From: Marsupella aquatica
Lineage: Eukaryota; Plantae; Marchantiophyta
Length of the DNA stretch: 64,000 nt
Assembly (NCBI GenBank): GCA_973895155.1
Contig: OZ316892.1
Coordinates: 19,913,869 to 19,977,868, forward strand
Direction: 5' to 3'
Shown here: piece by piece, positions 5,194 to 63,505 of the stretch
Position numbering within the stretch: the first letter of the stretch is position 1
How the letters are laid out: every line of letters begins with the position of its first letter
Translations under genes and position numbers: made by a program
The notes under the pieces: model-generated
What the model saw: only the letters and a program-made list of their open reading frames with translations
Database searches by the model: none
Told to the model about the DNA's origin: nothing

Positions 5194-5344
5194 TTTGGAT
5201 CTGAGGAAAAATATTTGCAACAAAAACATCTTTTAAAACATCCTACACGAGGCTCGTGTGAAAATCTCTAACTCTAATCTAAGCAAATATCACAGAACTG
5301 AAAATTCAAATCCAGTTTAAACAAGCAATGAAGACAGTCATCTA

Positions 5345-5995
5345 AAAAGTTGAAGGTTCTTTCATTAAAGAGAAAATTCTATTGTATCTTAGACAAGGGG
5401 AACAACACGAGCCTCGTGTAGACAATCAAAAGTCCAATATTCAATAGAGATTACGACTGAATCCACACTAGTAGGCTCTTAAACCTTCTATACATAGATG
5501 CATATTTTGAAATGAGTATTCTTCTTAGAGGAACTTTCTATTGAACGTTGTATTTGGATAGACGAGGGGAACAACACGAGGCTCATGTAGACAATCCAAA
5601 GTCCAATATTCAATACAGTTTACGACTGAATCCACACTAGTAGGCTCTTAAACCTTCTATATAGAGATGGATATTTTGAAATGAGTATTCTTCTTAGAGG
5701 AACTTTCTATTGAACGTTGTATTTGGATAGACGAGGGGAACAACACGAGGCTCATGTAGACAATCAAAAGTCCAAAATTCAATAGAGATTACTACTGAAT
5801 ACACACTAGTAGGCTCTTAAAACTTCTATAGAGAGATGGATATTCTGAAATGAGTATTCTTCTTAGAGGAACTTTCTATTGAATGTTGTATTTAGATAGA
5901 CCAGGGGAACAACACAAGACTCGTGTAGCAAATCAAAAGTCCAAAATTCAATAGAGATTAATACTGAATATACATTAGTAGGCTCTTAAAACTTG
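5345..5995. repeat. 169-bp tandem repeat (~4 units), each carrying the palindrome ACACGAG-N-CTCGTGT or a variant
   Basis: Motif starts at 5405, 5574, 5743 and 5912 (period 169); a further perfect copy lies at 5245-5259. Confidence 0.9.
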
Positions 5996-6582: not shown

Positions 6583-6977
6583 ACTTCCTCCTAGGACAGG
6601 TCGCAGTTTAAGTGGAGGGCGGTAGCCATGCAGTTGAGTTAAAGTAACAAATGTTACCACACAATGCTTGGAATTTATTTTTTAGCCTCGACGCTTTCAG
6701 AAGCGTCCTCTATATAGGGTGACGCTGTCAAAAGCGTCCACTTTTGCACTACACCTAAGACACAACGCCTTCAGAAGCGTCCATCTAGGCACGACACTTT
6801 CATAAGCGTCCACCACATAACCTAGTTTTAGAATGACTCGACGCTTCTTGTACGACGGCGGATGGTGACATCTCAACGGGATTATCAGGAGTGGAGTGGG
6901 TGCGCATATAAGCATAGCTCGCGATGGAACAAGTTTACGATTAAGCTCAACGTGAAGACAAGATGACTATCAACGTG

Positions 6978-7803
6978 ATGGCAGAGACCGAGGTCATGGC
7001 GAGACCAGTGCTTGCAATTATTCCGACGATCTCGACTGATTGACGACAATTGAAGGCGATTTTGGCGACTATGGGTTTGAAGAAATTATTTTGGTTCCCC
7101 TGGAAAATTTGTGAATTCAGCCTCATCGATGGAGGTGTATGGACGCTGAAGAAGGAATCAACGTTCGTTCGCAACCAAGCGTCTGGACCAAAACATTCAT
7201 AACGGATGTCTATTCGACGTCAACAACCGGGGAAGATTTGCAGAGAGTTGACGGTGAGTCCTGAGCTTATGTTGAATCTTTTTTCGCCCCTGAATCATTC
7301 AAAAGGCGAAATGGTTGGGTAGCTGGAGATTGCAGAGATATGTCTTTGCAACATCTTTTCCGATTCTTGTCACCAATTTTCTACCCTGAAAGTCAATCTC
7401 GGATCACTCTTTCCTTTGCAGCTACAGTAATTTCTTCATTGGAGAGGAAGCAGGAAATAAACTGGACGAAAATTCTACACAGGGTAATTCATACCCAGGT
7501 GCAGAATTTCCGCAACAGATCGATTGCAAGCTGGGAAGCTGAGATGTACTAATTTAGCCCCTTATTTAGCTCACATTTATTATAGGCATAAGTGTCTTCT
7601 GCCTGCGGAAAAGGAACTCTACCGTACTCTCAGAGGGAGTTTTAATCGGGAAGTAGAAGGTTTACTAGAGGACCAAGTGGACCAACCCAATACGACAGTA
7701 GTTGCCCTGTGTGAATTACTTACTTGTGAGGAAGCAGAGTTAGTGGATGAGGTTCGAAGATTGAAAGACTCAGGAGAATCGGCTGAGGGGAAAGAAGAGC
7801 CAA
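6978..7803 (+). pseudogene. Gypsy extra ORF, 5' part (interrupted by the TIR element)
   Basis: FRFLSPIFYPESQSRITLSFAATVISSL...INWTKILH...LAPYLAHIY resembles the extra ORFs of bryophyte Gypsy elements. The frame resumes after 20135 (EEP|ILPQKPEDH...). Confidence 0.55.
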
Positions 7804-8084
7804 ATCAGTCTATTCATTAAAACTGGAAAATTCTTTGATCTTTGGACATTTAGGCACCAAAAAATATATATTTGGGCACAAGAATTGTACATTTGGGCAG
7901 TGGGAGTTGTACACTTGGGCACCAGATGTTGTACATTTGGGGGATCAAGATTATACATAGGAGAAAATGAAATATTAATTTGGATTCTAAAGAAAAACAT
8001 TTGGGTGATAATAATGTAAAATATGTTGGATAAGAAGTAGAACTTACTTACATTGATTCAATTTGACTAATAGAATATAAGTGT

Positions 8085-8257
8085 CTAGTAAAGCTTCAAT
8101 ATGATCTCTACCCATATAACTAGTAAAGCTTCAATTTGATCTCTACCCATATAACTAGTAAAGCTTCAATTTGATCTCTACCCATATAACTAGTAAAGCT
8201 TCAAATAATATGATCTCTACCCATATAACTAGTAAAGCTTCAATATGATCTCTACCC
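8085..8257. repeat. 35-bp subterminal tandem repeat (~5 units)
   Basis: CTAGTAAAGCTTCAAT(A/T)TGATCTCTACCCATATAA at 8085, 8120, 8155, 8190 and ~8229. Confidence 0.9.
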
Positions 8258-8735
8258 TTAGCTAGCTAAATTAACCTTCTACTTAGTTACTAATTGAGAG
8301 CATTTAATATATTAAATTTGAATGATACCTGGCTTACTATCCATTCAGACAAGTAATTTGTTACATTCTAAGCAACTCGAGTTGAAACTAAGGTGTACTA
8401 CTAGATAGTACTAAGAGGCACTCACATCCTATCATGGATATTAAGACTTCATGTAATATATAGTCTGTATTGATATAATAATTAATTAAAGCAAGTAATT
8501 GATAAAGGTATCCAAGTCTAATTACCTCCACCTATTCAAACTAGTATCCCAAAATATTATAATAATTAGTTACTTAAATAGATATACTACTTAGTACTAA
8601 CCAACAGTAAGTACTAAAGACATGTCTGATTCCAAAATAATTGACATAGACTCCCTCACTCTGACATGTCTAATTCCAAACTAAATGACATAGACTCCCT
8701 CACTCTGACAGAGTGACTACTAAAAAACATTTGAC

Positions 8736-11700
8736 TTACTCAACAATCCCTTCCATGTGAGTTTTGAGTGTTTTCAAAATATTCTTGGGAATGGTTAAAC
8801 CTCTATCAATTATATTTTCTTCTCTAGAGCGTGACTTGAATCCATACATAGCAGAATTAGCAAATTGCCAACGTTCAGTGGCACTGTCAAACCCAGGATC
8901 CACCTCCCAAGTCTTAGTGGTCTGAAAGCAACGTGAATATCGCATGATCCGGTGCATCATGCTTACCATGTTTAGGCCTCCACCATTGCACTTGGAACAT
9001 AGGAGCATACCGTGTACTAGTAGGAGAATTCTCATTGCATTGCAAGTCTCCTGAAGGAACTTCATGGTTTGGGTCCACAACACCCAAAGCTCTCACCAAC
9101 CAGAAACGTTCTTTCCCATTCTTCTTTTCCCATTCATCCTCTGGACGGAGAAATACAAAGTGACCCTCTTGAATGTCCTGCAGAGGAATCCAACGTGCAA
9201 GTTCTCGCTCGTGTCGAGCGCCAACAAATGTTGCAGCTTGATCCTCCATCTCTTCCAGGTACTCATTCTGAAGCTCCACCATTTGTGGATTCTGTGTACT
9301 ACTACTAGGCTCCCCCAATGGTTCAGAGGTTCCTGTACTATTAACCTTGTAAATAGTTTCGTGGTTGGTTTTTGGCCAGAATTCATATGTCAATGCTAAT
9401 TGTATTTCTGCCTCCCCTTCAATTGTAAGCTCCCCAGATAATACTTGCACCACCATCTCCCAATATTTCACCAAAGGAAACCGCTCACGATATGCTGTAG
9501 AGGTCTCATCCTTACAACTCTTCTTCAAAAACTCAATGTAACGATTAAGGAATGGGATGATTTCTTCAACCTTGCCTTGTACATCCCCGGAGATGGGTTT
9601 TGCAAATGGTTGACCTTCTGGTAAAATGAGAGCATTGGTGCTGGAATCAGTTCTCCAAATGGACCTTCCGGTTGGAGGGTACCAAGGTTGTTTCACATGT
9701 GCTTTGTATTGATATATTGGAACATTATCTCTCATAGAGAAAAGAAATGCCACTAGTTTTGAGTGACCCTCTATGTCTTTTACCTTGAAAGTTTTCAAAA
9801 ACTCTTTGTAAGCTGCAACCTCTTGGATCAACCGTAGGACAGGATGAATATATGCTTTCACACTCCCAAACCTCAGCCATCAACCCCAAGAGGGTAGAAA
9901 CCTCCTTGTACTTCACTTGGTTGGATACTTTTGAAAACAATGCATCGACATCCTCATGGGTGTGACCAACCATGAGAAACGACATCTGCACTGTTTCAAA
10001 AACCCCTCTACTAACAAGCTCACTGCAAAATGCCATCATGTACTGGTTTTTGTTATCTTTCCCTGAATTATCCATTTGCAAGGTCAGGTGCCTTGGCAAT
10101 GGTTTGAAAGAGGTAGACGTAGCCTTGGGATCAACACCAAAGTCGTCTTGGTCATCTTTAGCTCCTTGAAATCTAGCAATTGAGACTTTTTTGGGTTCTA
10201 AGTAACCTGCGAGACATTCTTCAAAGTCCAAAAGAGATTGAAAAATTGGCCTCGTTGTAGCCCAATATAATCCTTCAAGGAGGTCTCCAAATTTGTCCCC
10301 CTTGTAATCCTCCAGATCTCTAAGGCACTTGGCCAATGATGTCACTGTGAAGTCTGCATCTCCCGGCCAAAGCCCAGTGAAACTGAAGTGAGCATACACT
10401 CCGAGATCCCTTCCATGGGTCAACATCCCAGTGAGCGCAATGGGGAGCGGTTGACCACTACCAGACAATGATTTAGGAGTGGGGACCAACCTAGGGATCC
10501 ATGTCTTGGCCTGGTCCATCTTGTCATGTATAATGCAAAGATAGTTCTCAGGATCCTTCTTCGCAAGAACCCTATGAGCATAGTAAACATATCTCCTAGA
10601 CATTTGCTCACGAAGATGGCGAGCTCTTCTTTCCTCAATCTCTAAACGCTCTTTCTTTCTCTTCTCCCGCATCAACTGATCTTTGAACTCAGTGCAAAGT
10701 GTACACTTTGCAAATGCACTTCCCTTGTGAAAGTCAAAATTCATGAAGGACTCACTCCAGAGTTTATACATAGTGTTTTCACTCACCTTCACATAGCCAT
10801 CTAATTCCATTTTTGAGTATACCTCCTCAAAAATCTCTTTCTTTGTGAAACAAGATGGAAGTCTGTACTCAACCATGTCAGTCCTGTGAGACCCTCCATA
10901 GGGAAATGCAGCATGGGTTCTCCATTTTGGGTTAGAATGGACTCCAACAAAGCACGAGCATGCAAGGTGCTTCCCCGTGTCTTGTGTGAACCCTTGTTTC
11001 CGTGGAATCCAACCGTGCAACCTGTTTCATATTGATTTTTGTAATCATAATACTTGGCAGTGCTGAATCCATGCATTTTAATAAATGCACCCTTGCAAAC
11101 AAGTCTACTTCTTACAACGAAATATCCTTTTGTCTCCACTTCCTTCTCCCTACAGCCAAAAAGAGTGAGAATGTGACTGGTTTTGTTATCGCTTGACATC
11201 CCATGGTATTCCCTCCTTATTGCCTGTAGGTCTTCTCTCGGCATGTTGAGGCAACACTTCAACTTACAACAACCTTCTCTTTGGATAAAGTCAATTTCCT
11301 CCTCTGTGATTTTCAGTATCGCCCGAGACTCCAAGTGCTTCTTCCTTTTTTCATCTGGGTTGACCTTCGTTCTCTTGATGAAATTATACGGGCGCTTCGA
11401 AAACTCAGTGTCACCTTTCATATCTACCTCTAGATGATCTCGACCATCAATAATTGGTTTTGGAGAAACCTCTTCAATGAGATCCAGAAGAAAAATACCC
11501 CTTGATATCAGCAGAAGTGAACGGATGGCCCACCTAACAAGACCAGGCACTCCTGGGGAGATATTTGGGAAAAATAGAGGGTCAATCACGCGTGTGACAA
11601 CAACCCCAACGTGATCTGGTCCAAGAACATCATCATCAATTGCACCTGACTCAAAAGGAACTGTGATGATGCCAACCCCCACTTTGGTCCGATTATCCTC

Positions 11701-12426
11701 AGCATACAATTCCACCTACTCGGTCATCCAATTAGAACGCAAACTATAATCCTTGAAATTATAATTTGAAAAAACATCCCGTGTGGACAGGTCGTTTAGC
11801 ATATCCTGGGAAGAACTCCTCCGAGTAACATCCTTTAAATTCCAGAATACAAAAGTGTTCAATGCTTCTTGAATGGTATCGGCTCCATTGTGAGTAAAGG
11901 GTAACCTCTCCCTTCCTTGAAAAACTTCACATATTTTCACACTAATCCTAGAAGTGCCAAGTCTTTCATTGTGACAGGTCTCATCGGGATTCGTCTTGAA
12001 CACAAATCCACGAGCCACAATCTGATTGCCAATCCAGAGCTCAACTTCATCGCCAGATATAATCGAGTCTCCAAAACTTCCCATCGAAGATTTTTCTGGT
12101 ACAAAACCGGGAACCATATCCTTTGTAGAACAAGAGGCATCCATTTGTGTTGTCGTTGGAGTTGACTGTGACTTCAAATATGCAAAAGAGGCATCCCAAA
12201 TAATGCAGGAGTCGACAGCATCAAACAAGGTCCTGATCGGCGGCAAAGGGTAAGGAATTTCCCGTGATCCCTCATAGCACTTCTCAATGAGAACTCCTAT
12301 ACGATTACTTCCCAAATCAACATTATGCACTGAGTCACCCGGGTCAACCTTGAGGACGGTCCTGCAAGCAACTTCCACTCCGTCAATTACGAGGCAAACC
12401 TTGTCCCCTCGAAAGAAAATCCCCAT
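8736..12426 (-). pseudogene. Sola1/DUF7869-type DDD transposase with three N-terminal Tnp1/En-Spm-like domains; frameshifted
   Basis: Motifs CTLC...H, IIHDKMDQ, LQMDNSGKDNKN and FLMVGHTHEDVDALFS. ORFs 11716, 10801, 9725, 8914 and 8736 are collinear pieces (one stop, about three frameshifts). Confidence 0.8.
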
Positions 12427-13299
12427 TTTGAAAACGTGGTCCAAACTGTTGGATGTAGTTACCTCGAGATGATCTCGAGGTAAAGTGACTACAAAAACAA
12501 ACCAAAAAACCCAAGTGTAGAAGTTTATCCCACAAATTTGTGTGATAGAGAAAATAAGAAACTCTTCTACCTCGAGACGATCTCGAGGTAGAAGAGGGAC
12601 CAAAAACTCCAATATGTAAAAATTCAGAAGTATTTAGCTTGAGACGATCTCGAGGTAAAATATGAAATCTCACTGAATAGCGAATTCAGATTCTATACCT
12701 CCGACTCTCTACAAACTCAATTATGAGAAAGAAAACCGAATGCACCATTAGAAAGAAGGCAAAAGTGAATAAGTTTGAGGATCAAACTTATGACTCGAGA
12801 TGATCTCGAGCCAAAAAGGACATTGTATTTGACAAAGAAACTATTATGAATAATAAGCCACCCAATATAAGAACATATAAATGGCTCTAGATGATCTAGA
12901 GGAATGATTTGGTGCACTTAAGAAAGTAGGCTCCCAGTTTACTTCCAGACACTGAGAAATAGCTTCTAAAAGGCCATCAAATAGAGGGAAAAGGCTTCCA
13001 AATGGATTTTGACCGACACTAGTATAAGCTGAAAAGGTTTGGTTTTCTAAAAGATAGGAGCTCAATTATTTTAGACCTCCTTCAGGGCTTAAAATGAGAA
13101 TTTCTCGAAATATCCTAAACACAAACGTAGAGTCCACAACCCTTGAAAAGAACAACAGAAAGAGATCAGAGCAGAAATCTAGAGCCAAAGAGAGGGAGAG
13201 GGAGAGGGAGAGAGAGGCAAAGGGAGAAACGAGCGAGCAATTAAACGAAATGAGAAGAATGACCCGCTGGAGACCAAAGAGAAGCAATATATAAAACCC

Positions 13300-13560
13300 T
13301 GACATACAAAAAGGCCAATAAGACGGCTTTGTTGAACTTGTGTCACGGCTAAACTCACGGCAGGGCTGAAGTACGGATAACAATAATGACAACACGTGTG
13401 ACCGTAATAATGACTGTACGCACCCAGCAGGTTGCGTGGCAGCCTGCCTGAGCCTGCACGAGCCCTGGCACGCTTGGCACGGCCAAGGCCGACCCCCGAG
13501 GGGCTTATAGTGGTTTCAGGGGTTTTGAATCCCCCATTTTCACATTTGCCTCCTTGCCTC
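13300..13560. promoter_or_regulatory. Putative bidirectional promoter of the TIR element
   Basis: GC-rich core between the divergently oriented transposase (-) and cargo (+) units, with pyrimidine-rich leader-like tracts on each outgoing strand. Confidence 0.35.
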
Positions 13561-15661
13561 TTCGCCTCCTCTCGTCCCTTGCCTCCTTGCCTCTAGATTG
13601 TTTTGCGCTCTTGCCTCGAGATCCTTGTATTAGCCTCGAGATTGAAGAGGGTCGAGATTAGGGATTTTTCCTCAAGATTTTATAGGGTCAAGATTTTGTG
13701 TTTAAGCTCGAGCTTCGATAGGGTCGAGATATTTTGTTTAGGCTTGAGATTTGTTTTTAAGTTCTCAGCCCGTAGCTAGTACGTTCCTCTCTTCACCAGC
13801 CATGTCGACTGTTGTAGATTTCACCAAGGAGGACTTTGCTGAGTACAACCTTGCAACCATTGGCGAAGAGCTTCAGACCCATCTAGACTCAGCGCATCAG
13901 ATCCATCGCACCATTAAACGTAATTCATCATCTTTGTTCTGTTCAGGTTTAACTCGAGATCGTCTCGAGCTTCAATTGGTCCACTTGTTTCTGGATTCCT
14001 TGGATGCAGTTGAGGCTCGAGATGAGATCATCTCGAGTCTATTGATGTTTTCTGCAATACTTTGCTTCAAAATTTGTGATCTATCAATTGATTTTGCATT
14101 TGATGTAAGTGGCATGAGGCTCGAGATCGTCTCGAGCCAATATGCAATTCCTGCATGTGACCTAGTGAGATTTCTTCAAGTTGGAAACCCTTATCCTTCA
14201 AAAGTGAAACATCATATCCAAAAAATCTAAAATTTCCTTCCTCCAGGGACTTCTGTACCCTCCAACTCGTTCTGATTATTGACATCCGAATGGGTTTGTG
14301 GGTATCAGAAGTCAATGGAGAAAGTGGATTTTAATCATTGATTGAATATGATGTTCATTGTTGAATATGATATTTGGATCACTCGTTTGACATGTTAGGC
14401 TTGAGATCATCTCGAGCCAAATATATCTCTCACCATCTTCCTTTATGGTCATTCGTATCCCTTGGCCAATTTCTTCCAGTTGGAAGGACTCCATGTCGTC
14501 AATTACTAATATCCTTTTCATTGTGATCCAAGCTTGCCTTTTGGACCACTTTCTTAGTCCTCCAACTCATTTGTGAAGATGACAAACCACTGAGTTAGAG
14601 GGTTTTGAATGTGGTCGAATAGGTGACATTGGATCATTCTTAAAAATGTTGTTCGTTAAATTTGACTGGTTCATGATATGCAATGGAATAAAACCTCAAC
14701 TAATATATATGAGGATCGAGATCTTTTAAACAGATGGTGGCTCGAGATCATCTTGATTTCCTAACTATTGTGTTATCTTTTTAGATTTCTTGGGTTTGAA
14801 ATCTCTTTTTAAATTCCACGGATGAAATGGCATTGGAACATGTCAGACTATTAAACTTAAAAGGAAGATCGAGATTATCTCGAGCCACCTATTTGTTTCT
14901 TGGTTTTGTAGTACATGTTTCTGACAATTGCTACATTTTGGCTGTACCAGGTGCAAAATTGGGATCGCCTAATTTGGTAGTCGAAGATGAACATGCAATC
15001 GAGGTTTCCTGCCCTGGACAGGGTTTATTTGGATTCTGTTGGGCCATTGAGCTTGCTAAAACTGAAGACATGGAAGGAACTATTATTTGTGTGAAGACGA
15101 GGTCTCCATCAGTCGATCCTCTAGTGTGCAGCCTTCTAGGGCCTGTTGTTTCTATTGTGACGAGTAACGGTAAGGACATGGTTTTGACGGGGGAGAACCA
15201 CGAGACAGGGAAGTGGGCTCTAATTAGACTTCACGCCAAAAACTACTCTTGCGATCTTAACATTGAACGTGCAGCCAGGAAATAACTGAGCGTGATATCA
15301 ATGGGGTTCTTCCCCGAGGGTTTTACTACAAGTAATTTGCTAGAAGATACTCCTATATCTGGAGCGGACATAATTTTTGGATTCCTTTATTGTTGAAAGT
15401 ATGGGTTTGATCGTGATGATGCATTCACGACTCCTTTCACGTGGAAGGTTTTGAGACTAATGTCGGAATCCAAATTGGGGGAGTTTGAATCCATATCCCC
15501 TGATTTTGTGTTTGGAGCCGAAGAATTTGACGAGGATGCTTGTAAAAAGTGGGTGTTGTCTCATCGGAGACAAACAGGTAAATTGAAATCTGTAGCTGCG
15601 GGAGACAAGACGTCTGGTTTGGACAAAAAGGAAGCAAAGGTGTCTCAAAAGAGGAAGAGGG

Positions 15662-16425
15662 TTGAGAAACCCGAAAGCAAAGCGAAGAAAGAAGGCTCCA
15701 CCTCAAAAAAAGTCCGCGCCGCCCAAGGTAGATCTCATTCCGGCATCTTCCTTGGGTGTGAATGCACATACCGATGATGATGGCACTCCAGGAGATGCTC
15801 CGGGAGAAAAGAGCGTTAAGGAAGGAGCCGAAGTTCTTAAGGAGATTGAGGAGTATTACACATTTGGCATGAAGGAAACTTTTGACATTCCTGTCACTAG
15901 TATAGATTCGCCGTCTGCAGTTTTGGTATATAGGATGTTCAGTAAAGACCATGCCATGGAGGTCGCAAAATCCATGGTTAGAAACCCTGGAATGGTACCA
16001 GCTGTGGCGGATTTAATTCCGTATTCACGAGAGAGTTTGCAGTTGCTCCATTATGAGAATACTGCTGAGGATCGAAAGGAGTTTGAGTGGGGTGTTAAGA
16101 ATAAGAAGGTGCAGTTCCTTGCAATCAATGGACAACACTCGGCAAAGGCAGCTGTTTGGATCATAGGTTGGGCTAAGAGCGATGCAAAGTTGAAGGAGGT
16201 CGCAAAGAGTCTGCAATAGCAAAAGTCACAAATTCTTTCGGACAGAACTCCAAGAACAATACTTGCTCAACACTCACAAAGGGAAAATGTTGTTAATAAG
16301 ACCATGGAGTATGAGTCCTGTTTTCTTGATACTATGGTCCATGCCCGTCGACAGTTTGACAAGTGTGGCCATGCGGAGAGACCCGTGATTGGGTCCAATA
16401 GACTAACGGATCATCAAACGTTCCA
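15662..16425 (+). pseudogene. ParB/Srx (DGQHR-like) domain of transposon cargo protein
   Basis: IPVTSIDSP...YRMFSKDHAMEVAKSMVRNP...VQFLAINGQHSAKAA fits the ParB N-terminal pattern (R..F....L.ELA.SI....; I.GxHR, here GQHS). Preceded by a K-rich NLS-like region; one in-frame TAG. Confidence 0.55.
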
Positions 16426-17062
16426 GGTAAATTTGAACTCAAATCCACTTCTAGCTCGAGATTGTCTCGAGCCTTGAGGTCAAGTTTCTGTATTTGATTT
16501 ATCTTCATGTATTCTCCCATAAATTTTACCATAGTTCCTTAATTCTACCTCAAGATCGTCTCGAGCCTCAGATTTTCTTTGTACTGTTTGGATCAGGATT
16601 TTATGGCCCTTGCCAAAATAACAACTGGAAAATTCAATCTCCGGAATTTTTTTGGTTGCTATTTTCGGATGAGAACCTCTTCCGAACTTGGAGACAAATG
16701 TGCATCGATTGGGTCAAGGGACTTCTTCCGGATGGTCTAGGGGAGTTAGGTTCAAAAATAAATGGGAAATCCCGGACAACAAAAATGATTACGCCGGCAT
16801 TGTTTAGATGCTTTGAAGGAGACCTGAGTAGTGACGACATTCTGAAAGTTTTTACTGCCGTTCAACAACAGAAGGTTTTATTGAAGAAAGACCCAGCCAA
16901 CAAATCTGATGTTCAATCAATGAGTGATATGGCTCATACTTTCAAAGTCATGACCAAGCTGAGGGCAAAAATTGTGGAGTACTTCATTTTGAAGTATCCG
17001 GATCGGTTTGCCAATTCACTCACTTGGTTTGAGCTAACTCAATTTTTGCCTGCATTTATGAG

Positions 17063-17300
17063 ATGGTCGGTCGGCGTGGTGGCTTTGTAAATCCGAGAGC
17101 AAAGCCTTTGCGAATGATAAAACGTCTTGTTGATTATTTCTCGTGCCCAGGTCATACAGTGTTGGATTTCTTCTCTGGAGGACAGACATTGAAAGCTTGT
17201 GTCATTCTTGGTCGGGATTGTTTTGTGTATTCGGACACAGCTCAAGAGATGGAATTCATAGAAGCCTTTGCTCAGCTCCTTCATGACAACAAGCAGGTTT
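17063..17300 (+). pseudogene. C-terminal half (motifs X-I-II) of a beta-class N4-cytosine/N6-adenine DNA methyltransferase
   Basis: NPRAKPLRMIKRLVDYFSCPGHTVLDFFSGGQTLKACVILGRDCF matches the N6_N4_Mtase consensus HPTxKPxxLxxRLIxxxSxPGDxVLDPFxGSGTTxxAAxxLGR. I found no DPPY/SPPY motif IV upstream, and the frame changes abruptly at ~17060. Confidence 0.7.
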
Positions 17301-18375
17301 TATATGTGCCACCCAAGGAGTCGTTACCATCTGAGGAAATTACTGCCGGTCCCCTTGTTGTAATAGAAGAGGCGGCCTTAGACATAGCTCCGGTGGAAGC
17401 CAGTGTTTATGAGGAAGTATTTGTGAAGAATTTAGAGCATCGCAAAATGGAGGGCCCAAAAATCACAAGCTACATGGAAGAGGAGGGTGAAATACTGCCT
17501 GAATTTGGAAATGATGCTTGAGATGATCTCGACGTTCCAGGTGTTCCTTCATCGGGTGACCTTGGGGATGCACAACGTGAACAACAGTCTTCAACCTTGG
17601 ATGTTGGCTGGGAATCCACCTTGCTCAATTAGCCAACCAATTCCAAGCCCTCCTCAACTGGATGAGATTTTCTCTACTAAGAAAGCTAGTGGCTGCCATA
17701 CTCCCCCTCAGGACGAGGCAGGTGCATCGTCCTCTCCCTTGGACCAAATGTTTTGCGCTTCAAAGAATAAGCTTGTTTTCACAGATTCTTCTACTGGAAG
17801 CCCCGTAATTCTCCCTTTTGTTAGGAAACCGGGGACTGAAATTGGTAGAACTGGTTACAAATCACTCAAAGCAAGTGCTACTCATTATGTTTGGACTGAT
17901 GGACCGTCAAAAGGTCAACAAGTCAGTATAGAGCAGTCTGAGAAGATTATTCGATCTAGAAAGTATAGGAAGGATAAGTTCAAATTAGTGCCAGTTTGGT
18001 CTGAGCCAGCTCTTGTTGAGACCCTTCTCGGAGGGATAAATTTGGACATCCAAAACCAACTAGGAGATAACCTTCTAGATGAATTTGGGTCTTTCAGCAT
18101 GTGAGGTTGAAACCCAAGTTATTTTGAACAGTCCTGAAATTCAGCCGTCTAAATTATTATGTCTACCTTCACAGAAATAGGCGGGCCCTTACTAGTTGTG
18201 GAGTGCATCGACAATAATCTCCAAAGATGTCCTGAGATTTCTTCAACTACTGACCTTCAACCAACAATAGGTATGACGTTGACTGTTGTTCATTCACTTG
18301 TGATGCTCGAGATCGTCTCGAGCATTCCTTTGTTTTATCTCCCACAATTCTAACATTGGTGTTCCTTCTTTGCAG

Positions 18376-19433
18376 GACCCTTGCCTCCACTTCACGGTCC
18401 GATCAGACGGAAGCTATTGATTCTTGACCTCAACAAAATGTGTTGGGATTCTGTCAAAATGCCAAGTTCCGGACCGCGCCGTAGTGCAACAAGTGTCAAG
18501 GGTGTCCACTGGGGGAGACGTGGAGGGTTTAACTTTATGTATGTTGAGCGACCCCATCTTCACGAGTTCTTAATTGCAGCTTTTTCATTATTTGATGTTG
18601 CCATTTGGACTTGTGCAAGGAAATCCAGGACGGATGAAATGATTCATTTGATCTTCAGTCAAGAAGAGTGAGAGCAATTCAAGTTTATTCTCACACAAGA
18701 AGATACATTCGATACTGGAATCCAGAGGCCTAACATTACCAATGGGAAGGCAAATATTCATTTGAAGGATTTGAGGGTGGTTTGGAAACGTTATGGTGGA
18801 TTATACGACGAAACTAATACACTCCTTCTTGATGACACTCCAATGAAGGCATTTGCGAATCCAGAGAATTGTGGGTTGTTTCCTTCCTCATTTTCGCATC
18901 ACTCCACGGATGATACATTCTTTCCAGAAATACTATGGCCTATGCTCAGGAAATTGTATCATGCCTTCAATCTTCAGCACTACCTTTTTATCAATCATCC
19001 AAAGTGGTCTATGATAAATGTTTTAGCGGACAGAGATCAACAGGCTGCCATTTATGCGTTGTTGACAAAGCGGTGGGGTAGTATGGTATGGGTTCATTCG
19101 GTTATGCATACAGTCTTGGATGTCATAGCGGACAAAATTCCTTGGGATGTCAAGAATGAAGTACAACAATTACCACCAATGGAGGAATTGACGGAGGAGG
19201 CGATCAACGACCTTGCAAAGACGTTAATTGGATATCAATACACAGGACCCTACAGAGACAATCATCGGGGATTTGTTTCAGAAGTCTTGAGGTGTAGGGA
19301 CCTCACCACGAAGTTCTGGAATAGGAAGCCTCTCAATTTCTGCAATCGCGATATGAAATATGACCCATCAGGGTCTAGATTTACTTGCTCAAATGAATTC
19401 TGCGGGGTGGAGGAGCATGAGATTTGGGTCTAG
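18376..19433 (+). pseudogene. FCP1/NIF-family HAD phosphatase domain (transposon cargo)
   Basis: RKLLILDLNK...YVERPHLHEFL...FDVAIWT...KDLRVVW...NTLLLDDTPMKAFANP; one in-frame TGA; GT-AG intron ~18271-18375 links it to an upstream exon. Confidence 0.8.
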
Positions 19434-20135
19434 ATTATCTCGACCCTACACTGAAGAGTTACAATGTGAGTTGTAGATATACATATTCTTACTCAAAAAT
19501 AAGTGAAGCTATGCGTACTATCCATTTGAGTCTAGATGTTGTTGATCCTCTTTTACTTGTAGATATGTTCTCAGAAAAAGGTTATTTGGGTCTCGACCCT
19601 ATACAAAGGGAATAGCTAGAGATATAGATTCAACAACGGGTCAAAATTATGTGGACCCTACATTTGGGTCGAGATAATCTCGACATAGATTTTTACATAG
19701 TAATTGATATACATTCAACAACCGGTCAAAACCATCTAGAGCCTGCATTGGGGCAGACGTGGTCTCGACCCTATAAAAATAGATTTTTTACTTTTATAAT
19801 ACATCACTAGTTTACCTTCCCTGTTTGTGTAACTTGGTTATCACGGGTCATTTGAATTTATTATATTGTCTTATTCTATTTTTTCATTGTTTATATTGTA
19901 TATAATAAGAACACTTTATTGTCTTTTAATTAATAAGTATTAATAATTGATAACTGAATTATTTAATTAATAATTTGGGCATTAGAATTGTAATTTTAGA
20001 CCTCAAAAAGTGTATATTTGGCCACTAAAATATATGCTTTTGGGGAACAAGTTATAGAACTTTTGGGGGTAAAATAATAAATTTGAAGGTCAACTTCTGG
20101 ACTAGAGAAATTCCAGTTTTAATGAATAGGGTGAT

Positions 20136-21984: not shown

Positions 21985-22095
21985 CAGATTTGTATTTAAC
22001 CACTTCGTGTATAAGATTTGAAAGGACATTTATTCCCTGGAGTATAAACGGATCTGATTGAAGTACTGAGCAGCACTCATTCTATTTGAGTCAAC

Positions 22096-22464
22096 ATGTG
22101 GACTGTAAAAGCTACCATGGATTGCTGTGATCCTCTACCCCGTGCATTTCAGCATTCCCTTGAAGGGGAGATTAAATTGGAAGGACACACCATTCAACAA
22201 TTTGTTATTGACCCAGGCTCTGGAATAAATTTACTGTCCCACAGACTGTTTCATCAATTAGTTCGCCAACAAGTTCAGCCCATATGTGCTCAAATCTCAA
22301 TCGATGGACGATTAATTCAACTTTGGGGTAGAGTAAAACAAGTGTCATTACAAATTGGAGAAGAATTTTATGACCTCAATTTTTATATTGTGAACCCCAA
22401 TGACAGCCATATTCCATCAATGGTCTTGAGTACCACTTGGATTCCGAAGCCAGAAGATTTTTGA
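22096..22464 (+). CDS. Stand-alone retropepsin-like ORF downstream of the extra ORF
   Basis: GEIKLEGHTIQQFVIDPGSGINLLS...MVLSTTWI fits the retroviral aspartic protease fold, but has DPG instead of D(T/S)G. Confidence 0.55.
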   Translation: MWTVKATMDCCDPLPRAFQHSLEGEIKLEGHTIQQFVIDPGSGINLLSHRLFHQLVRQQVQPICAQISIDGRLIQLWGRVKQVSLQIGEEFYDLNFYIVNPNDSHIPSMVLSTTWIPKPEDF

Positions 22465-23446
22465 TAAGGAATGCAGCTCTGGTCTTCAGTCGCAGCATGT
22501 TTGTCTTGTGCGGACACAACGAGGTTTAAGTGGAGGGCTATGTGGAACGGCGGCCTCTACATTTTTCTTGGAAGTCGGTTTATTTTTAGCACTTTTCTAG
22601 TATTTGTTCTATTCGGGACGCTTTTCAGAACCGTCTGCCACCACCGACCCTTTTTTGACCGATGCTTTCAGAAGCGTCCACCCTGATCCGGTGATTCACC
22701 CTTGACGCCTTCAACAGCGTCAACTTTTTCTGAGTACTTTCGACTAGCGACGCTACCAGAAGCGTCCATCCTAATACTGACGCTTTCCGAAGCGTCCGCT
22801 ACCTTAGATGTATTCTGCTACTCGGTCCTTCCGATACTTAGACTTAGTTTTCAAAATAGACTACCAATATAGTAGTATTTTGCCAACCTCGAAGTACTTA
22901 TGCTGTACTTCTCTCATGCTTAGTTTGACTTGAAGAGGCATGGCTTTTCATGTTTCCTTCATTTTAGGATTCTAGGACTTATAAGACTCACTAGGATGCT
23001 CATTCAGACTAGAGAGAAATAACATTCTATTCCGAAATGAGACTTCTGAAGTAATTTCTCCTCCTTCCATTGTAACAAGGCATTGTAGAGTGTTTTGTAT
23101 GGAAGTAAAGCTGCATATGTTTGAAATTGTAGATGAATTCAAGAGATTCCTTTGGTGATTGAATTCAATTGCAAGCTTTTGAGACTTATATTGAATTCAC
23201 TGTTGGGCTTACTTGTGAAGTCAAGATTCGGTAGCCAATTCAAGAGTTGTTGTTTGATATGTGAAGAGTAAAGTTTGGTTCTCAGAGTATTCAGTACCAT
23301 TGCTTTGTTTGTGGAATATGGCTTAGTGTTTTGACTGAATTGTGTATCGCTGATGTCAAACCATGTTGCAGGCATTTTAAGTCATATCGTTACATTTGCA
23401 ACCAGAAAAATACTTGTTTATCAAATGGAGAATTCCTTATCATGCA

Positions 23447-24440: not shown

Positions 24441-24861
24441 CACCCACAGCCCGCGGCCTGTGACCAATTCATCTTGGTTGTTGGAGTTGGCACCCACAGC
24501 CCACGGGCTGTGACCTCTTGCAGCTTGGCTAGCACTCACAGTCCACGGCCTGTGGCCTCTCATAGTTTGGTTGTGTGGGCTAGCACCCACAGCCCACGGC
24601 CTGTGGCCTCTCATAGTTTGGTTGTGTGGGTTGGCACCCACAGCCCACGGCCTGTGGCCTCTTGTAGTTTGGTTGCGTGGGTAGTCACCCACAGCCCACG
24701 GCTTGTGGCCGATTCATCTTGGTTGTGTGGGTTGGCACCCACAGCCCACGGCCTGTGGCCTCTTGAAGTTTGGTTGCGTGGGTAGTCACCCACAGCCCAC
24801 GGCCTGTGGCTGATTCATCTTGTTTGTGTGGGTAGGTACCCACAGCCCACGGCATGTGGCC
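24441..24861 (+). repeat. ~50-bp tandem array (9 units) of CACCCACAGCCCACGGCCTGTGG in the 5' UTR
   Basis: Units at 24441, 24491, 24533, 24584, 24635, 24686, 24736, 24787 and 24837; imperfect dyad CCACAGCC/GGC(C)TGTGG. Confidence 0.9.
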
Positions 24862-24939
24862 TAGGGTTTTGGAATCACGGAGTCTTCCAATAATGCAAAG
24901 CTACTTGGTGAACAACGGACTGGTTTCACTCGAAGTGGA

Positions 24940-25908
24940 GTGCAGTTTCGGCCAATGACATTGCTAGCAGATACTAGTAGAGCTTCAGATAGTGATTCTG
25001 ACGAGGGCTCTGTAGTCAACTCTCCTCATCATCAGGTAGTTGCACCATTGTTGTGGGATATGGAGGAGACGTATGGGTCCACTAAGGGCCCTAGAAGATA
25101 CTCTGGTGCAGTTGGCACAATTGATTTGGATGATTTCATCCAAGAGTTTGATACGTGGTGTGATATGCAAACGATGCATAACGCCACATTGTTTACACCT
25201 TTCATGGCATGGAAAGGGTTGTTTCAGCATTTGGAGGGTCCACCCATGGATGATTACCATGAGTTTTGGAAGACCCATTTGGCTGATATTGAGATATGGA
25301 GACAACATTGGTCACCAAACTATGTGTCCATCACTTACGGCACAAGTGCGGTTTCTCAACCTGTTGCCCCGGCTGTTGCTTCTTCTAGTAGCACTAGCCA
25401 GAGTGGCACTCCACCAGTATCCACTGTTACTCCTACCAGTGCAATTGTGGGTGGGAGTGGAGTTGTGCCAACATTTAACCCTGTGGTGAAGTTCTTTGAT
25501 GTGTTGAAGCAGAACTACCAGGGTGTGAGAACTGATAAGTTGAAGGGTCTTCAAGATTTTCAGCGCAAGACTGGAGAGAGTCTACGCGAGGCATACACTC
25601 GTATGCGAAGATTAATTACAATCACCAAGGGAGTGACAGAGGCCCAAGCAGTTCAATTTTGGTATGCAATTTTGGATAGAGAGTTGCGGCGTAGAGTAAG
25701 AGACGCCACTCTATTGAGGGATTCAGATCCCACATTGGCTATTGTTTTTGCACTAGCCGAGCGCATTGAGCTCAATATGGTGAATGAGAAGGTGGTGACT
25801 TCCGGATTTGTCAAGGAAGGCTCACCAAAGGTTGCAATCTACACCCACACCGCAACCTACTATAAGGAAGAGCCAGAGGGAGAAGCCTACAACACCGGAA
25901 TCTACTAG
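24940..25908 (+). CDS. gag: Gag (capsid region)
   Basis: RYSG...DLDDFIQEFDTW...LQDFQRKTGESLREAYTRMRRL is a retrotransposon gag signature; continues by frameshift into the zinc-knuckle frame. Confidence 0.8.
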   Translation: MQFRPMTLLADTSRASDSDSDEGSVVNSPHHQVVAPLLWDMEETYGSTKGPRRYSGAVGTIDLDDFIQEFDTWCDMQTMHNATLFTPFMAWKGLFQHLEGPPMDDYHEFWKTHLADIEIWRQHWSPNYVSITYGTSAVSQPVAPAVASSSSTSQSGTPPVSTVTPTSAIVGGSGVVPTFNPVVKFFDVLKQNYQGVRTDKLKGLQDFQRKTGESLREAYTRMRRLITITKGVTEAQAVQFWYAILDRELRRRVRDATLLRDSDPTLAIVFALAERIELNMVNEKVVTSGFVKEGSPKVAIYTHTATYYKEEPEGEAYNTGIY

Positions 25909-28801
25909 TCAGAGACCTGTGCCCTCCTATGCTGGACAGCAGTCAGGATGTTGGACTTGTGGTGGGGATCATGCACAAAGATATTGCCCAGATAATAGAG
26001 GGTCCGGAGGGGCATCTATGCCCGATCAACGATTATGTGATCATTGTGGAGTTTCTGGTCACACCAAAGATAGGTGTTTTGTACTCCATCCTAAACTACG
26101 ACGGGGAGGATCGCGTACATATGATCAGGGAAGAGGAGGTAGAGGTGGTGGTGGTGGACGAGGGATGCCACATGCAGGGAGACAACAAGGTGATGCTCTT
26201 GCCACTACCATAGATCCAAAAGATGCAAAGATTGCTCAATTGGAGCAACAACTAGCTGCCATGGCCAGTTCTCAGGTTAGACCTACTTCTGGTGATGGAG
26301 CTTCTACATCTTATGGAGCTGACGGAGACTTGGCCACCATGGGATTCATGTGTGGCACTGCCCATGTTGATGCATCGGCAGCTTTGACTAGAGGAGCAAC
26401 CAAAGTCCTTGAGCCCCGAGGAGCAATGGTAGAGTTGGATCCTCAAAGGGGGGAGGTTCGTCAACAAACAAAGCTTCCTCAATCGTTTACGTTGTTAGAG
26501 GCAGTTCACACTACCTCTATGAACCCGGTTAAGACAAATCCAAGTGTTGATAAGTCGGTAAAATTGGATGATGTTGCAGCAGGTCTAGCAAGTACCTTGT
26601 TGGGGGCGGCCACTAACATTGTGCGCACCCCGTTATTTTCAGCAACAGATATATTGGCATTGGGAGTTAGTCCAGCTGAAGTGTTCAGATTGGCGGCCAC
26701 ATTATGTGAAGACACTCTAGTTGTTGCTTCTCGTGCAGAGACAATGCATAATTCTGAAGTTGTGGAGTTGATTCCACCTATTGCTAGTGGTGAAACATGG
26801 CAAGCAGCAGCGGCGAGGTTGATGGAGTTACCAGCACGCCCTGCCTTTGAGAGAACTAGGTTTAAACCTAGTGTGGTATCATTGGATAATCGGAGTGGTA
26901 TCTTCCGATTAGTTGGGCCTTTTGGAGCAATATACCAGCCAGAACGAGTGTTATTGGATACTAGTGCTCAACCCTTGATGTTGGGTAAGTCTGCGATACA
27001 AGGATTGGGATTGTGTCCAGATGATTTGGAGGAGTGTCCTTTTCCCATTCAGACTTCATTGGGAGGACCTACACCCAAACAGCATATCACCAGACGAGCA
27101 CTTGAACTTAGGATTCAAGAGGATCATCCAAAGGATAACTCACGGATCCAGGCTCAAGCTATTTTGACTAAAGCTGAGTCGTATGATGTGTTAGTGGGAT
27201 GTACAGTACTTTATCCTATGGGATTTGTTCTTGATTTTTGGGATGAGTCGGTGTCGTATCGACCCGATTGGCAATCTGGAGATGCTCGATTGAGCCAATT
27301 GCCAGTGCGATTTAGTGGACCTGTGGGAGGTCCTAAATCTGCACCATTGTCTTTGGCAGCATTCAGTAGTTTGATTACTGGATCTGATGAGTTGATTGAA
27401 GGTAATGCACATGCAGCAGATGTTCCGGCAATGGAGGAGCCACGTGAGGAACACATGATGGGTGTATTACCTGTTGATACCATTGTGGCACCAGTATGGG
27501 GTACTGGAGAGGCCTTGCAACAAAATGCGACCCAATTGATACATGATGCCTGGTGTCATGCTTTTACACCGGAGTCAGGAGCACAACAGTCTTTTGCAGA
27601 TGGACCGGTGACTCTTTCACCATTGGATACCACTCCTATTGTGTGGCAGTATCCAGAGGAGGGTATTTGTTTGTTGGATTTATTTGGTGGGATTAACATT
27701 GGATTGGCTACTATTCTTCAAGCAGGAATTCCTGTGCGTTGTTACTTGTACGTGGAAAATGATGAGATAACACGGAGGATCTCACTACGTCATGTAGCGA
27801 TGTTGGTGGAACGTTATCCACATTTGTTGCCAGTGGATGCCGTTTGTGGTTATCAGCATGCATTGCCTGCTGATATTTCATTATTGGGGGTGGATTATTT
27901 GGATCGTGTTGGCCCCATTGATTTGGTGATTGCGGGTTGGCCATGTCAGGGTCAATCTCGGGCTGGAATTGGACATGGATTTCATGATCCAAGATCTGCA
28001 TTATTTTGGGAGATGTTACGTGTGTTGCACCATCTCCAGATGCATCAGACACATTCTCCTGCATACATTTTGGAGAATGTCCCATTATTGGGTGATGATC
28101 GTCATCGAATTGTTGCTAGTATTCATCAGGTTCGATCTTGGATTGGACCTGTTGTGTTATTGGATGCTGCACGTGTGGGTTCTCATGCACATCGTCCACG
28201 ATTATGGTGGACTAACTTGTTACCATGTGAGGTCTTAAAGCGAGCATTTGATGGTGTACCTCGCTTAGCAACCTTATTGGTGGATAGTATTTTGGATCCA
28301 GGGCGTCGTGCACAAAGTGTTACCCAATCTGATCGAACCCCATTGGCAGTGGTGAATATTGTTGGGCGTCCGCGTTGTGCATTACCCACTTTTGTGAGCC
28401 ATTCTGCTTCATACGCATTTCGAGCAGGTGGCCCTGGACTTGTGTTGGATACAGCTCTACAACAACTAGTAGAGCCTACCGCTAATGAGAGAGAGCGGGC
28501 TATGGGATTTTTGACTAGCACCACTGCAGTGGCCTCGGTGTCGGAGCATTCACGTTGTCAAGTCCTTGGTCAAGCCATGGATTTGAATTGCTTGACTTGG
28601 ATTATCAGCTTGGGATTAGCTGAACAATTGCAAATGCGCACTTCTAATGTTACAGATCGTCCATTGGTGAGCTTGCGGCCTATCGAGACAGTAGCGGCCA
28701 CAGTTGGGGGCGAGCAAATGATTGATGGACCTATGGCAAGATTGGCCAAGGTAGAACATATTGTTGAGCAGAAGGAGGTTGCTCAAACTATTGATAAATA
28801 G
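25808..28801 (+). CDS. Gag zinc knuckles + aspartic protease + C5-cytosine DNA methyltransferase (DNMT domain ~27660-28620)
   Basis: Knuckles CWTCGGDHAQRYC and CDHCGVSGHTKDRC; protease VLLDTSA. DNMT motifs in canonical order: I LDLFGGI, II YVEND, IV AGWPCQG, VI ILENV, VIII HAHRPRLWWTNL, IX ERERAMGF, X LGQAMD. Confidence 0.92.
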   Translation: MSRKAHQRLQSTPTPQPTIRKSQREKPTTPESTSQRPVPSYAGQQSGCWTCGGDHAQRYCPDNRGSGGASMPDQRLCDHCGVSGHTKDRCFVLHPKLRRGGSRTYDQGRGGRGGGGGRGMPHAGRQQGDALATTIDPKDAKIAQLEQQLAAMASSQVRPTSGDGASTSYGADGDLATMGFMCGTAHVDASAALTRGATKVLEPRGAMVELDPQRGEVRQQTKLPQSFTLLEAVHTTSMNPVKTNPSVDKSVKLDDVAAGLASTLLGAATNIVRTPLFSATDILALGVSPAEVFRLAATLCEDTLVVASRAETMHNSEVVELIPPIASGETWQAAAARLMELPARPAFERTRFKPSVVSLDNRSGIFRLVGPFGAIYQPERVLLDTSAQPLMLGKSAIQGLGLCPDDLEECPFPIQTSLGGPTPKQHITRRALELRIQEDHPKDNSRIQAQAILTKAESYDVLVGCTVLYPMGFVLDFWDESVSYRPDWQSGDARLSQLPVRFSGPVGGPKSAPLSLAAFSSLITGSDELIEGNAHAADVPAMEEPREEHMMGVLPVDTIVAPVWGTGEALQQNATQLIHDAWCHAFTPESGAQQSFADGPVTLSPLDTTPIVWQYPEEGICLLDLFGGINIGLATILQAGIPVRCYLYVENDEITRRISLRHVAMLVERYPHLLPVDAVCGYQHALPADISLLGVDYLDRVGPIDLVIAGWPCQGQSRAGIGHGFHDPRSALFWEMLRVLHHLQMHQTHSPAYILENVPLLGDDRHRIVASIHQVRSWIGPVVLLDAARVGSHAHRPRLWWTNLLPCEVLKRAFDGVPRLATLLVDSILDPGRRAQSVTQSDRTPLAVVNIVGRPRCALPTFVSHSASYAFRAGGPGLVLDTALQQLVEPTANERERAMGFLTSTTAVASVSEHSRCQVLGQAMDLNCLTWIISLGLAEQLQMRTSNVTDRPLVSLRPIETVAATVGGEQMIDGPMARLAKVEHIVEQKEVAQTIDK

Positions 28802-28825
28802 CAACGAGCGACTGACTCTTCCATC

Positions 28826-29005
28826 CATAGCCCACGGCTTGTGGCCTCTTCATCTCCAAAGGAAGACGTCACAGTTTTGATGGAGAGTCACAGCCCACGG
28901 CTTGTGGCCTCTTCAACTCCAACGGAAGATGTCACAACTTTGAAGGAGAGTCACAGCCCGCGGCTTGTGACCTCTTCAACTCCAAAGGAAGATGTCACAG
29001 CTTTG
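28826..29005 (+). repeat. 63-bp in-frame tandem repeat (x3) between DNMT and RT carrying the same CACAGCCCACGGCTTGTGG motif as the 5' UTR array
   Basis: Motif at 28826, 28889 and 28952; encodes SHSPRLVASSxPxEDVT. Confidence 0.9.
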
Positions 29006-63269: not shown

Positions 63270-63505
63270 TGCATCGACGAGTTGCTGATGAACTAGTCTG
63301 CGTCAACGGGCTGTTGATGAGACCTGATTCCCATACATTTTCGAATTAATTGACTCTTCATCGACGAGTTGCTGATGAAGTAGTCCGCGTCAACGGGCTG
63401 TTGATGAGACCTGATTCCCACGCATGTCTAGCATAATTTACTCTCCATCGGCTACTTGCTCTTGTAGTCTGCATCAACGGGCTGTTGATGAGACCTGATT
63501 CCCAC
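63270..63505. repeat. ~86-bp tandem repeat (3 units) downstream of the alliinase/TAA-like gene
   Basis: TAGTC.GC.TCAACGGGCTGTTGATGAGACCTGATTCCCA occurs three times. Confidence 0.85.

Follow-up and report, generated by a model that had tools for sequence, protein, structure and literature searches.

The analysed window covers 64,000 nucleotides of contig OZ316892.1 from the liverwort Marsupella aquatica. It harbors a decayed DNA transposon that carries a transposase gene, a divergent cargo gene with a predicted ParB/Srx-fold domain, and 18 copies of a 17-bp dyad, CTCGAGA-N3-TCTCGAG. Excision of positions 7806-20133 reopened the reading frame of the interrupted host element, and contig depth climbed and dropped near both ends of the transposon. 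In contigs from the runs of three organisms, the transposon was far deeper than the junction contig (in X1, 320-2457 against 19.6), which fits a multi-copy family and gives no copy number. The transposase contains a DUF7869 core (PF25273, E 5e-38), a domain that we take to be tied to the CMCT clade; its nearest named relatives come from Riccia and Calypogeia, and PF03017 matched weakly in two of five transposase relatives. The CMCT clade (EnSpm, Mirage, Chapaev, and Transib) is described as having 5'-CA..TG-3' termini and target duplications of 2-5 bp (PMC12730594). The element shows both hallmarks, CA..TG termini and a 2-bp target duplication, and by these it fits with the CMCT clade.

Searching the window for the dyad with at most two mismatches resulted in 16 matches, every one within 11428-19684, against a mean of 0.14 and a maximum of 1 in 100 shuffled windows. 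The copy at 19428, with three mismatches, and the copy at 14016, which holds a 5-base insertion (at 14019) that family contigs do not have, raise the total to 18. Seventeen of the 18 coordinates listed in the first-pass annotation were exact, 14016 being the copy with the extra bases; among these 17, seven copies are perfect, four have one mismatch, five have two, and 19428 has three. The 16-bp arms reported at 12562-12596 were also recovered. The annotated confinement to the transposon held at up to two mismatches, with no dyad in the 51.7 kb of the window outside it. It weakened at three mismatches, where two dyads lay outside (2030 and 31299) and two inside, and the left 3.6 kb of the transposon (7806-11427) is devoid of the dyad.

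The most frequent perfect dyad in the window was TCGAGA-N3-TCTCGA (n = 9), and along transcription the consensus core reads TCGAGAT-C-RTCTCGA. The spacer had been annotated as mostly flipping about the divergent promoter, and indeed 16 of the 18 copies have T(C/T)R when read along the sense strand of whichever gene contains them, those at 17517 and 19668 being reversed. The half-sites noted around 13590-13752 proved to be four TCGAGAT words in one orientation, packed into 110 bp of the cargo leader; over the whole element, the enrichment of lone TCGAGAY half-sites was mild (7 inside versus 13 outside). Near the left terminus, a subterminal tandem repeat at 8085-8257 (35-bp unit, 4.8 copies) holds GATCTCTA, which is one base off the dyad half-site and is a candidate transposase site or variant half-site.

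The placement of the dyads is mostly non-coding, as had been annotated. Four predicted introns, together 14.6% of the element, contain 14 of the 18 (binomial p = 3e-9); one of them, cargo intron 2, matches uninterrupted homologs, and the other three were inferred from sequence. Each mapped intron holds at least one dyad, and the dyads avoid the element termini. Of the non-intronic copies, two are in coding sequence, a third sits where the coding region ends, and the fourth is in the 3' region (Table 1).

Table 1. Features of the transposon and its dyads in window coordinates
Feature	Positions	Strand	Details
Whole DNA transposon, decayed	7806..20133	.	12,328 bp; CA..TG ends; AT duplicated on both sides
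Left terminal inverted repeat	7806..7828	+	matches the right one at 21/23 bases
Transposase long exon	8754..12445	-	interrupted by stops and frameshifts; DUF7869 core preceded by Tnp1/EnSpm-like N-terminal repeats; homolog tblastn
Dyad copy in transposase coding sequence	11428..11444	-	
Transposase predicted intron 1	12446..12942	-	GT..AG; dyads 12463, 12571, 12638, 12794, 12885
Cargo-leader half-sites	13590..13752	+	TCGAGAT at 13616, 13636, 13652, 13724; TCTAGAT variant at 13592
Cargo gene, broken, divergent from transposase	13802..19433	+	
Cargo intron 1 (predicted)	13920..14950	+	GT..AG, in-frame join; dyads 13953, 14016, 14120, 14400, 14741, 14868
ParB/Srx-fold domain (predicted)	15779..16426	+	GQHS where GxxR is expected
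Cargo intron 2	16427..16596	+	in-frame join, matches uninterrupted homologs P0029 and P0061; dyads 16455, 16549
Residual methylase C-terminal part	17057..17323	+	PF01555, E 1.8e-7
Dyad copy in cargo coding linker	17517..17533	+	spacer reversed
Cargo intron 3 (predicted)	18271..18375	+	GT..AG, in-frame join; dyad 18306
Dyads 19428 (coding-region end) and 19668 (3' region)	19428..19684	+	half-sites at 19590, 19762
Right terminal inverted repeat	20111..20133	-	

The dyad arms are 0.93 identical across 17 copies, against 0.43 for the 40-base flanks and 0.40 for random segments, a contrast that is partly built in, as the arms were chosen by match. Tandem Repeats Finder (TRF) detected no tandem array joining the copies. 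Conservation of the motif among family copies had been proposed as a check, and the family contigs do keep the dyad; among the rows listed, they retain the consensus base at 12640, 14402, and 14876, where the present copy has decayed, and the deamination-type changes at 12640 and 14402 are private to that copy. Within 12445-12915 (471 bp), none of 24 shared polymorphisms fell in the 85 motif bases, where 4.3 were expected (p = 0.007; contigs from two studies, 40 of the 45 rows listed), a fragile result with a worst-case p of 0.57. The annotation also held that the CGs of the motif persist. This is true of 25 of the 34 arm CGs (17 copies, without 14016); the remainder comprise five with deamination-type changes and four that read TCTAGA. 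One X3 contig doubles a 67-nt motif unit (joint 12601-12568), one X1 contig skips a dyad copy (joint 12491-12622), and read depth in X3 and X4 is highest over the motif bins. The copies likely spread by tandem duplication, with the motif alone retained later, and the dyad looks to be under selection. We conclude that it is a real, conserved, family-level tag.

The cargo gene joins in frame over three GT..AG introns, and homology to its relatives starts directly past intron 1. Its domains run from a PH-like domain through the ParB/Srx fold, a helical region, the C-terminal part of an N6/N4 methylase, and an unassigned domain to an NIF (FCP1-like) phosphatase, the last domain of the gene according to Pfam. 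The N-terminal domain (14951-15600) is weakly PH/PTB-like in the fold of a homolog (VIA Z 4-4.5), and an additional short intron, free of dyads, may exist near 18101-18175. The first-pass annotation had named the product a ParB-methyltransferase protein, and both halves of that name left a trace, the ParB fold and a PF01555 remnant. The present copy, however, has lost approximately 244 methylase residues (position 17057 corresponds to homolog residue 192 as well as 436), and in P0061, the single fuller homolog, a DPPY/SPPY-type motif was not visible by eye. The methylase region of P0061 was closest to phage N6_N4_Mtase clusters, several of them with ParB_N, at scores under the bar of the tool, so that the match serves as a lead only. 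A link to Marchantia DN4MT1 was also considered: DN4MT1 has TSPPY (10.1101/2021.02.12.428880), and P0061 does not.

The presence of ParB in the cargo, also annotated, was borne out on the homolog P0001, which is 59% identical to the cargo over the ParB domain. Folded with a 50-sequence alignment, P0001 reached a mean predicted local distance difference test (pLDDT) score of 81.7, whereas its single-sequence fold (pLDDT 37.9) was unusable. Foldseek placed ParB, Noc, and sulfiredoxin among the top 13 rows listed (best probability 0.99, E 0.017), and superposition on Myxococcus xanthus ParB gave VIA Z 9.9 with a root-mean-square deviation of 2.2 over 95 residues. On this model, the ParB/Srx fold of the cargo appears real. 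Language-model features linked the ParB domain to fungal DUF3723 clusters (0.95). Pfam returned no ParB family for 25 cargo homologs, the best match being DndB in one of the 25 (E 0.052); a sequence profile search of PDB gave low-complexity matches only, and a metagenome scan with the ParB alignment gave 75 pattern matches and no relatives.

The annotation had further proposed parS-like loading and spreading, for which the relatives gave no support. Of 60 related proteins, 42 show the motif; where GxxR would have its arginine, these 42 read GQH followed by S (39), L (2), or T (1), and by R in none, the equivalence of GQHS and GxxR resting on position in the fold. Mutation of this arginine to alanine abolished nucleotide binding in published tests (10.1101/2025.10.10.680097). 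Loading and spreading of the cargo as a cytidine triphosphate (CTP) clamp is doubtful because the arginine is absent in all 42 relatives and its replacement kills nucleotide binding. Moreover, none of 13 element frames matched a ParA ATPase family in Pfam. With both the GxxR arginine and ParA missing, the cargo/dyad pair is not a member of ParABS; the repeated palindrome of roughly 16 bp resembles a ParABS site in geometry only. ParB proteins that lack the arginine patch nonetheless bind half-sites (PMC10419367).

We consider it probable that the dyads bind an element-encoded protein. Some protein appears to read the dyad because its arms vary independently and lone half-sites occur, and the cargo is favoured as the reader because the dyads are dispersed intron by intron over the cargo gene and avoid the termini. 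Our preferred reading, which we judge about as likely as not, is that the 18 dyads serve as self-recognition docking sites for the element's own ParB-fold cargo protein, keeping the family copies active. A dimer of the cargo protein would dock on the double-stranded dyad without a CTP clamp and, once docked, would alter the local chromatin so that the family copies stay active. The anti-silencing effect would come from the methylase-like and phosphatase domains or from host factors recruited by them. Loss of the arginine would leave the cargo binding without a clamp and so in need of many sites, where ParB would slide from few.

Several observations weigh against docking by the cargo. A metagenome search gave 36 loci that encode a relative of the transposase, none of which showed the cargo, and the flanking frames of related loci (84 of 141 frames, plus 8 more) had no ParB-type Pfam match. 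At least four families among these loci, in which no ParB was detected, nevertheless have family-specific dyad arrays adjoining the transposase, and the neighbouring retroelements of the window also have dyad arrays, mostly plain tandem repeats. The conserved region after the ParB fold, where a helix-turn-helix would lie, had no Pfam match in P0029 or P0061. The five decayed arm CGs and the fragility of the polymorphism test belong here as well; many of the variants in that test come from one or two contigs, and motif changes at 12641, 12646, and 12654, mainly from one low-depth contig, were excluded by the filter. Because relatives with no detected ParB and retroelements have them, the presence of dyad arrays is not in itself a sign of ParB. 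The annotated choice of the element's own ParB protein as reader is partly supported, by the ParB fold, the conservation of the dyad and its concentration in introns, and is weakened by the arrays that stand beside the transposase in relatives with no detected ParB.

As the main alternative, the dyads might be bound by the product of the transposase gene, through its helix-turn-helix region or its Tnp1/EnSpm-like repeats, with the ParB cargo as a bystander, which we regard as rather unlikely. Relatives at 31-52% identity have family-specific dyads adjoining the transposase, and the cargo was not detected in them. Locus L124 (527-1583) has eight copies of TTGGCCATATGGCCAA upstream of the long exon, with a flank identity of 0.55 against a baseline of 0.52. 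L125, L123, and L127 have two to four copies of GCTCAAAC-N4-GTTTGAGC (L125 array at 632-926; dyad slightly changed in L123 and L127), L131 and L128 have eight and three copies of AAATCTA-N8-TAGATTT (L131 array at 7357-8152), and the L141/L154 group has four to five copies of TGAATTT-N6-AAATTCA (L154 array at 12927-13419). In L131 and L141/L154, 8-10 kb of upstream sequence gave no cargo match; L123, L124, L125, L127, and L128, however, have less than 2 kb on the upstream side, the place expected for a divergent cargo, and their element ends were not found. Most arrays of the relatives are ordinary tandem repeats (flank identity 0.63-0.82), and at 10 of 21 loci tested the best dyad family had one or two copies, within the shuffle range (low-dyad loci: L122, L123, L130, L133, L134, L135, L136, L137, L148, and L150; also L152 and L127). 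Viral contigs contained no transposase relative and served as a negative control, in which the best dyad family reached at least three copies in 7 of 80 loci; motif matches were single in 78 of the 80 viral loci listed and numbered two in the remaining two, which are one contig. Spm transposases carry helix-turn-helix DNA-binding domains and TnpA binds clustered family motifs (10.64898/2026.08.24.746577). There, TnpA binds the Spm termini, whereas the present dyad is absent from the left 3.6 kb and densest in the cargo introns.

Recruitment of a host transcription factor that reads AGAT/GATC-type half-sites would make the dyads an enhancer dispersed over introns. Plant GARP and GATA factors read such cores, and three to four unrelated retroelement regions of the window also contain dyad arrays, because of which the dyad pattern needs no ParB gene. 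We nevertheless find a host factor improbable, as a run of 15-17 fixed bases is long for factors of this kind, the dyad differs from family to family, and no copy lies outside the element in 51.7 kb. RNA hairpins in both pre-mRNAs, acting in splicing or small-RNA control, or DNA cruciforms would account for a spacer that tracks transcription direction in 16 of 18 copies, for the 14 intronic copies, and for the copy with 16-bp arms. What is conserved, however, is sequence and not pairing: the arms change singly (11428 and 19428), lone half-sites occur, and VANC motifs are likewise co-oriented, so we hold hairpins to be very improbable. Flank symmetry was rejected as a hairpin signal, since flank pairing showed no excess over permutation (25 versus 22.7, p = 0.31). 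A similarly remote prospect is that the dyads are a functionless, neutral by-product, a hairpin-prone seed copied by slippage. The tandem gain and loss of the motif unit and the frequency of dyads within tandem repeats of the window speak for such an origin; yet the flanks are at the random level while the arms stay 93% identical across 8 kb, the copies belong to no common array in TRF, faster decay than in the flanks would be expected of a CG-rich word, and three copies lie in or at the end of coding sequence.

The other dyads and repeats of the window are as follows. A Gypsy-type retroelement (24865-31531) encodes a reverse transcriptase and, upstream of that, a C5 cytosine methylase domain (PF00145, E 5.7e-12); ahead of the retroelement, at 24444-24860, lies a 51-bp tandem array with nine CCACAG-N8-CTGTGG dyads. 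In the element that the transposon interrupts, four GACGCT-N6-AGCGTC dyads lie close to each of its ends (6690-6810 and 22661-22796); their flanks are weakly related (0.54), and 22090-22461 gives a weak aspartyl protease match. Five copies each of ACACGAG-N-CTCGTGT (5245-5926, 169-bp unit) and CATCAAC-N5-GTTGATG (63272-63490, 87-bp unit) occur inside tandem repeats. Each of the tandem-repeat dyad arrays of the window contains CG. Long inverted arms, 208 nt at 97% with additional flanking pieces, enclose about 1.5 kb at 36008-38349, as in a foldback element or one resembling miniature inverted-repeat transposable elements.

Docking of a ParB-type protein on its own transposon is an idea already published for red- and brown-algal elements. 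In Plavaka of the red alga Bostrychia, a ParB-domain gene (PAG2/PAG3) neighbours inverted repeats in tandem as well as a PF01555 gene; the authors of that study suggest self-binding and cite the VANDAL parallel (10.1101/2025.02.11.637652). In Sola1-1_Ec32 of the brown alga Ectocarpus, a ParB plus N4/N6 methylase gene lies opposite the transposase, and self-binding is again proposed (PMC12477816). In the available parts of these 2025 proposals, that ParB accessory proteins bind or modify their own element, neither a site sequence nor a test is reported. The liverwort element shares with both the combination of a ParB-like domain and an N4/N6 methylase (PF01555) inside a large DNA transposon, although the methylase is mostly deleted in the present copy. 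It further shares with Sola1-1 the cargo opposite the transposase and with Plavaka the inverted repeats by the ParB gene. It differs from the algal elements, PAG3 being compared by description, in its DUF7869 transposase and in having ParB, methylase, and NIF phosphatase apparently in one gene. In contrast to the tandem array described for Plavaka, its dyads are dispersed over introns and its site is defined. Among the results listed from an open-access library, no publication dealt with the present transposon family or motif. The novelty lies in a land-plant example whose candidate site, 17 bp long, is precise and conserved.

Bacterial ParB/parS, Noc, and KorB resemble the liverwort pair in the ParB/Srx fold, a dyad of 7-bp arms, and possible half-site binding (10.1101/2025.10.10.680097, PMC10419367). 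Unlike ParB/parS, the liverwort pair has no GxxR arginine and no ParA, its dyad does not resemble in sequence the half-parS words given in PMC10419367, and a segregation role is not plausible for an integrated element. Phage fusions of ParB and N6/N4 methylase, described for ParB-terminase loci (PMC4738411), are nearest to the methylase region of P0061, again as a lead only. Unlike those fusions, P0061 has no visible DPPY/SPPY-type motif, and the cargo has extra eukaryotic domains. An extended scheme, unlikely in our view, would make a phage-derived ParB-methylase, fused to an FCP1-like phosphatase, a portable self-recognition module of eukaryotic transposons that dimerises on intron-dispersed parS-like dyads, loads or bridges along the element through an altered nucleotide switch (GQHS), and blocks host silencing by writing or mimicking an N4/N6 mark at the site, which contains CG and GATC. 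If true, it would be the first ParB/parS-type system acting on land-plant chromatin.

In Arabidopsis VANDAL elements, VANC21 and VANC6 bind family motifs, which leads to hypomethylation (PMC5735166); anti-silencing that works through arrays of motifs has been demonstrated for VANC and for TnpA. The analogy drawn in the first-pass annotation fits, including the gain and loss of motif-bearing units in family contigs. As in VANDAL, the motif is short and family-specific, dense and co-oriented in introns and intergenic parts, and spread by tandem duplication. The VANC motifs, in Mutator-like elements, differ in measuring 8-9 bp with no dyad, and binding and hypomethylation are only inferred for the present element (PMC5735166). 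The likeness to TnpA of Spm/EnSpm would lie in a related transposon clade, clustered family motifs, and an element-protein reader; TnpA is transposase-derived and its motifs are terminal and 8-10 bp long, whereas the present motif is an internal dyad (10.64898/2026.08.24.746577). Cargo binding, if true, would add a third sequence-specific anti-silencing route beside VANC and TnpA, from a prokaryotic partition fold, and may, if true, offer a targeting tool for plant epigenomes. In its manner of working, the dyad system is more like VANC or TnpA than like parS.

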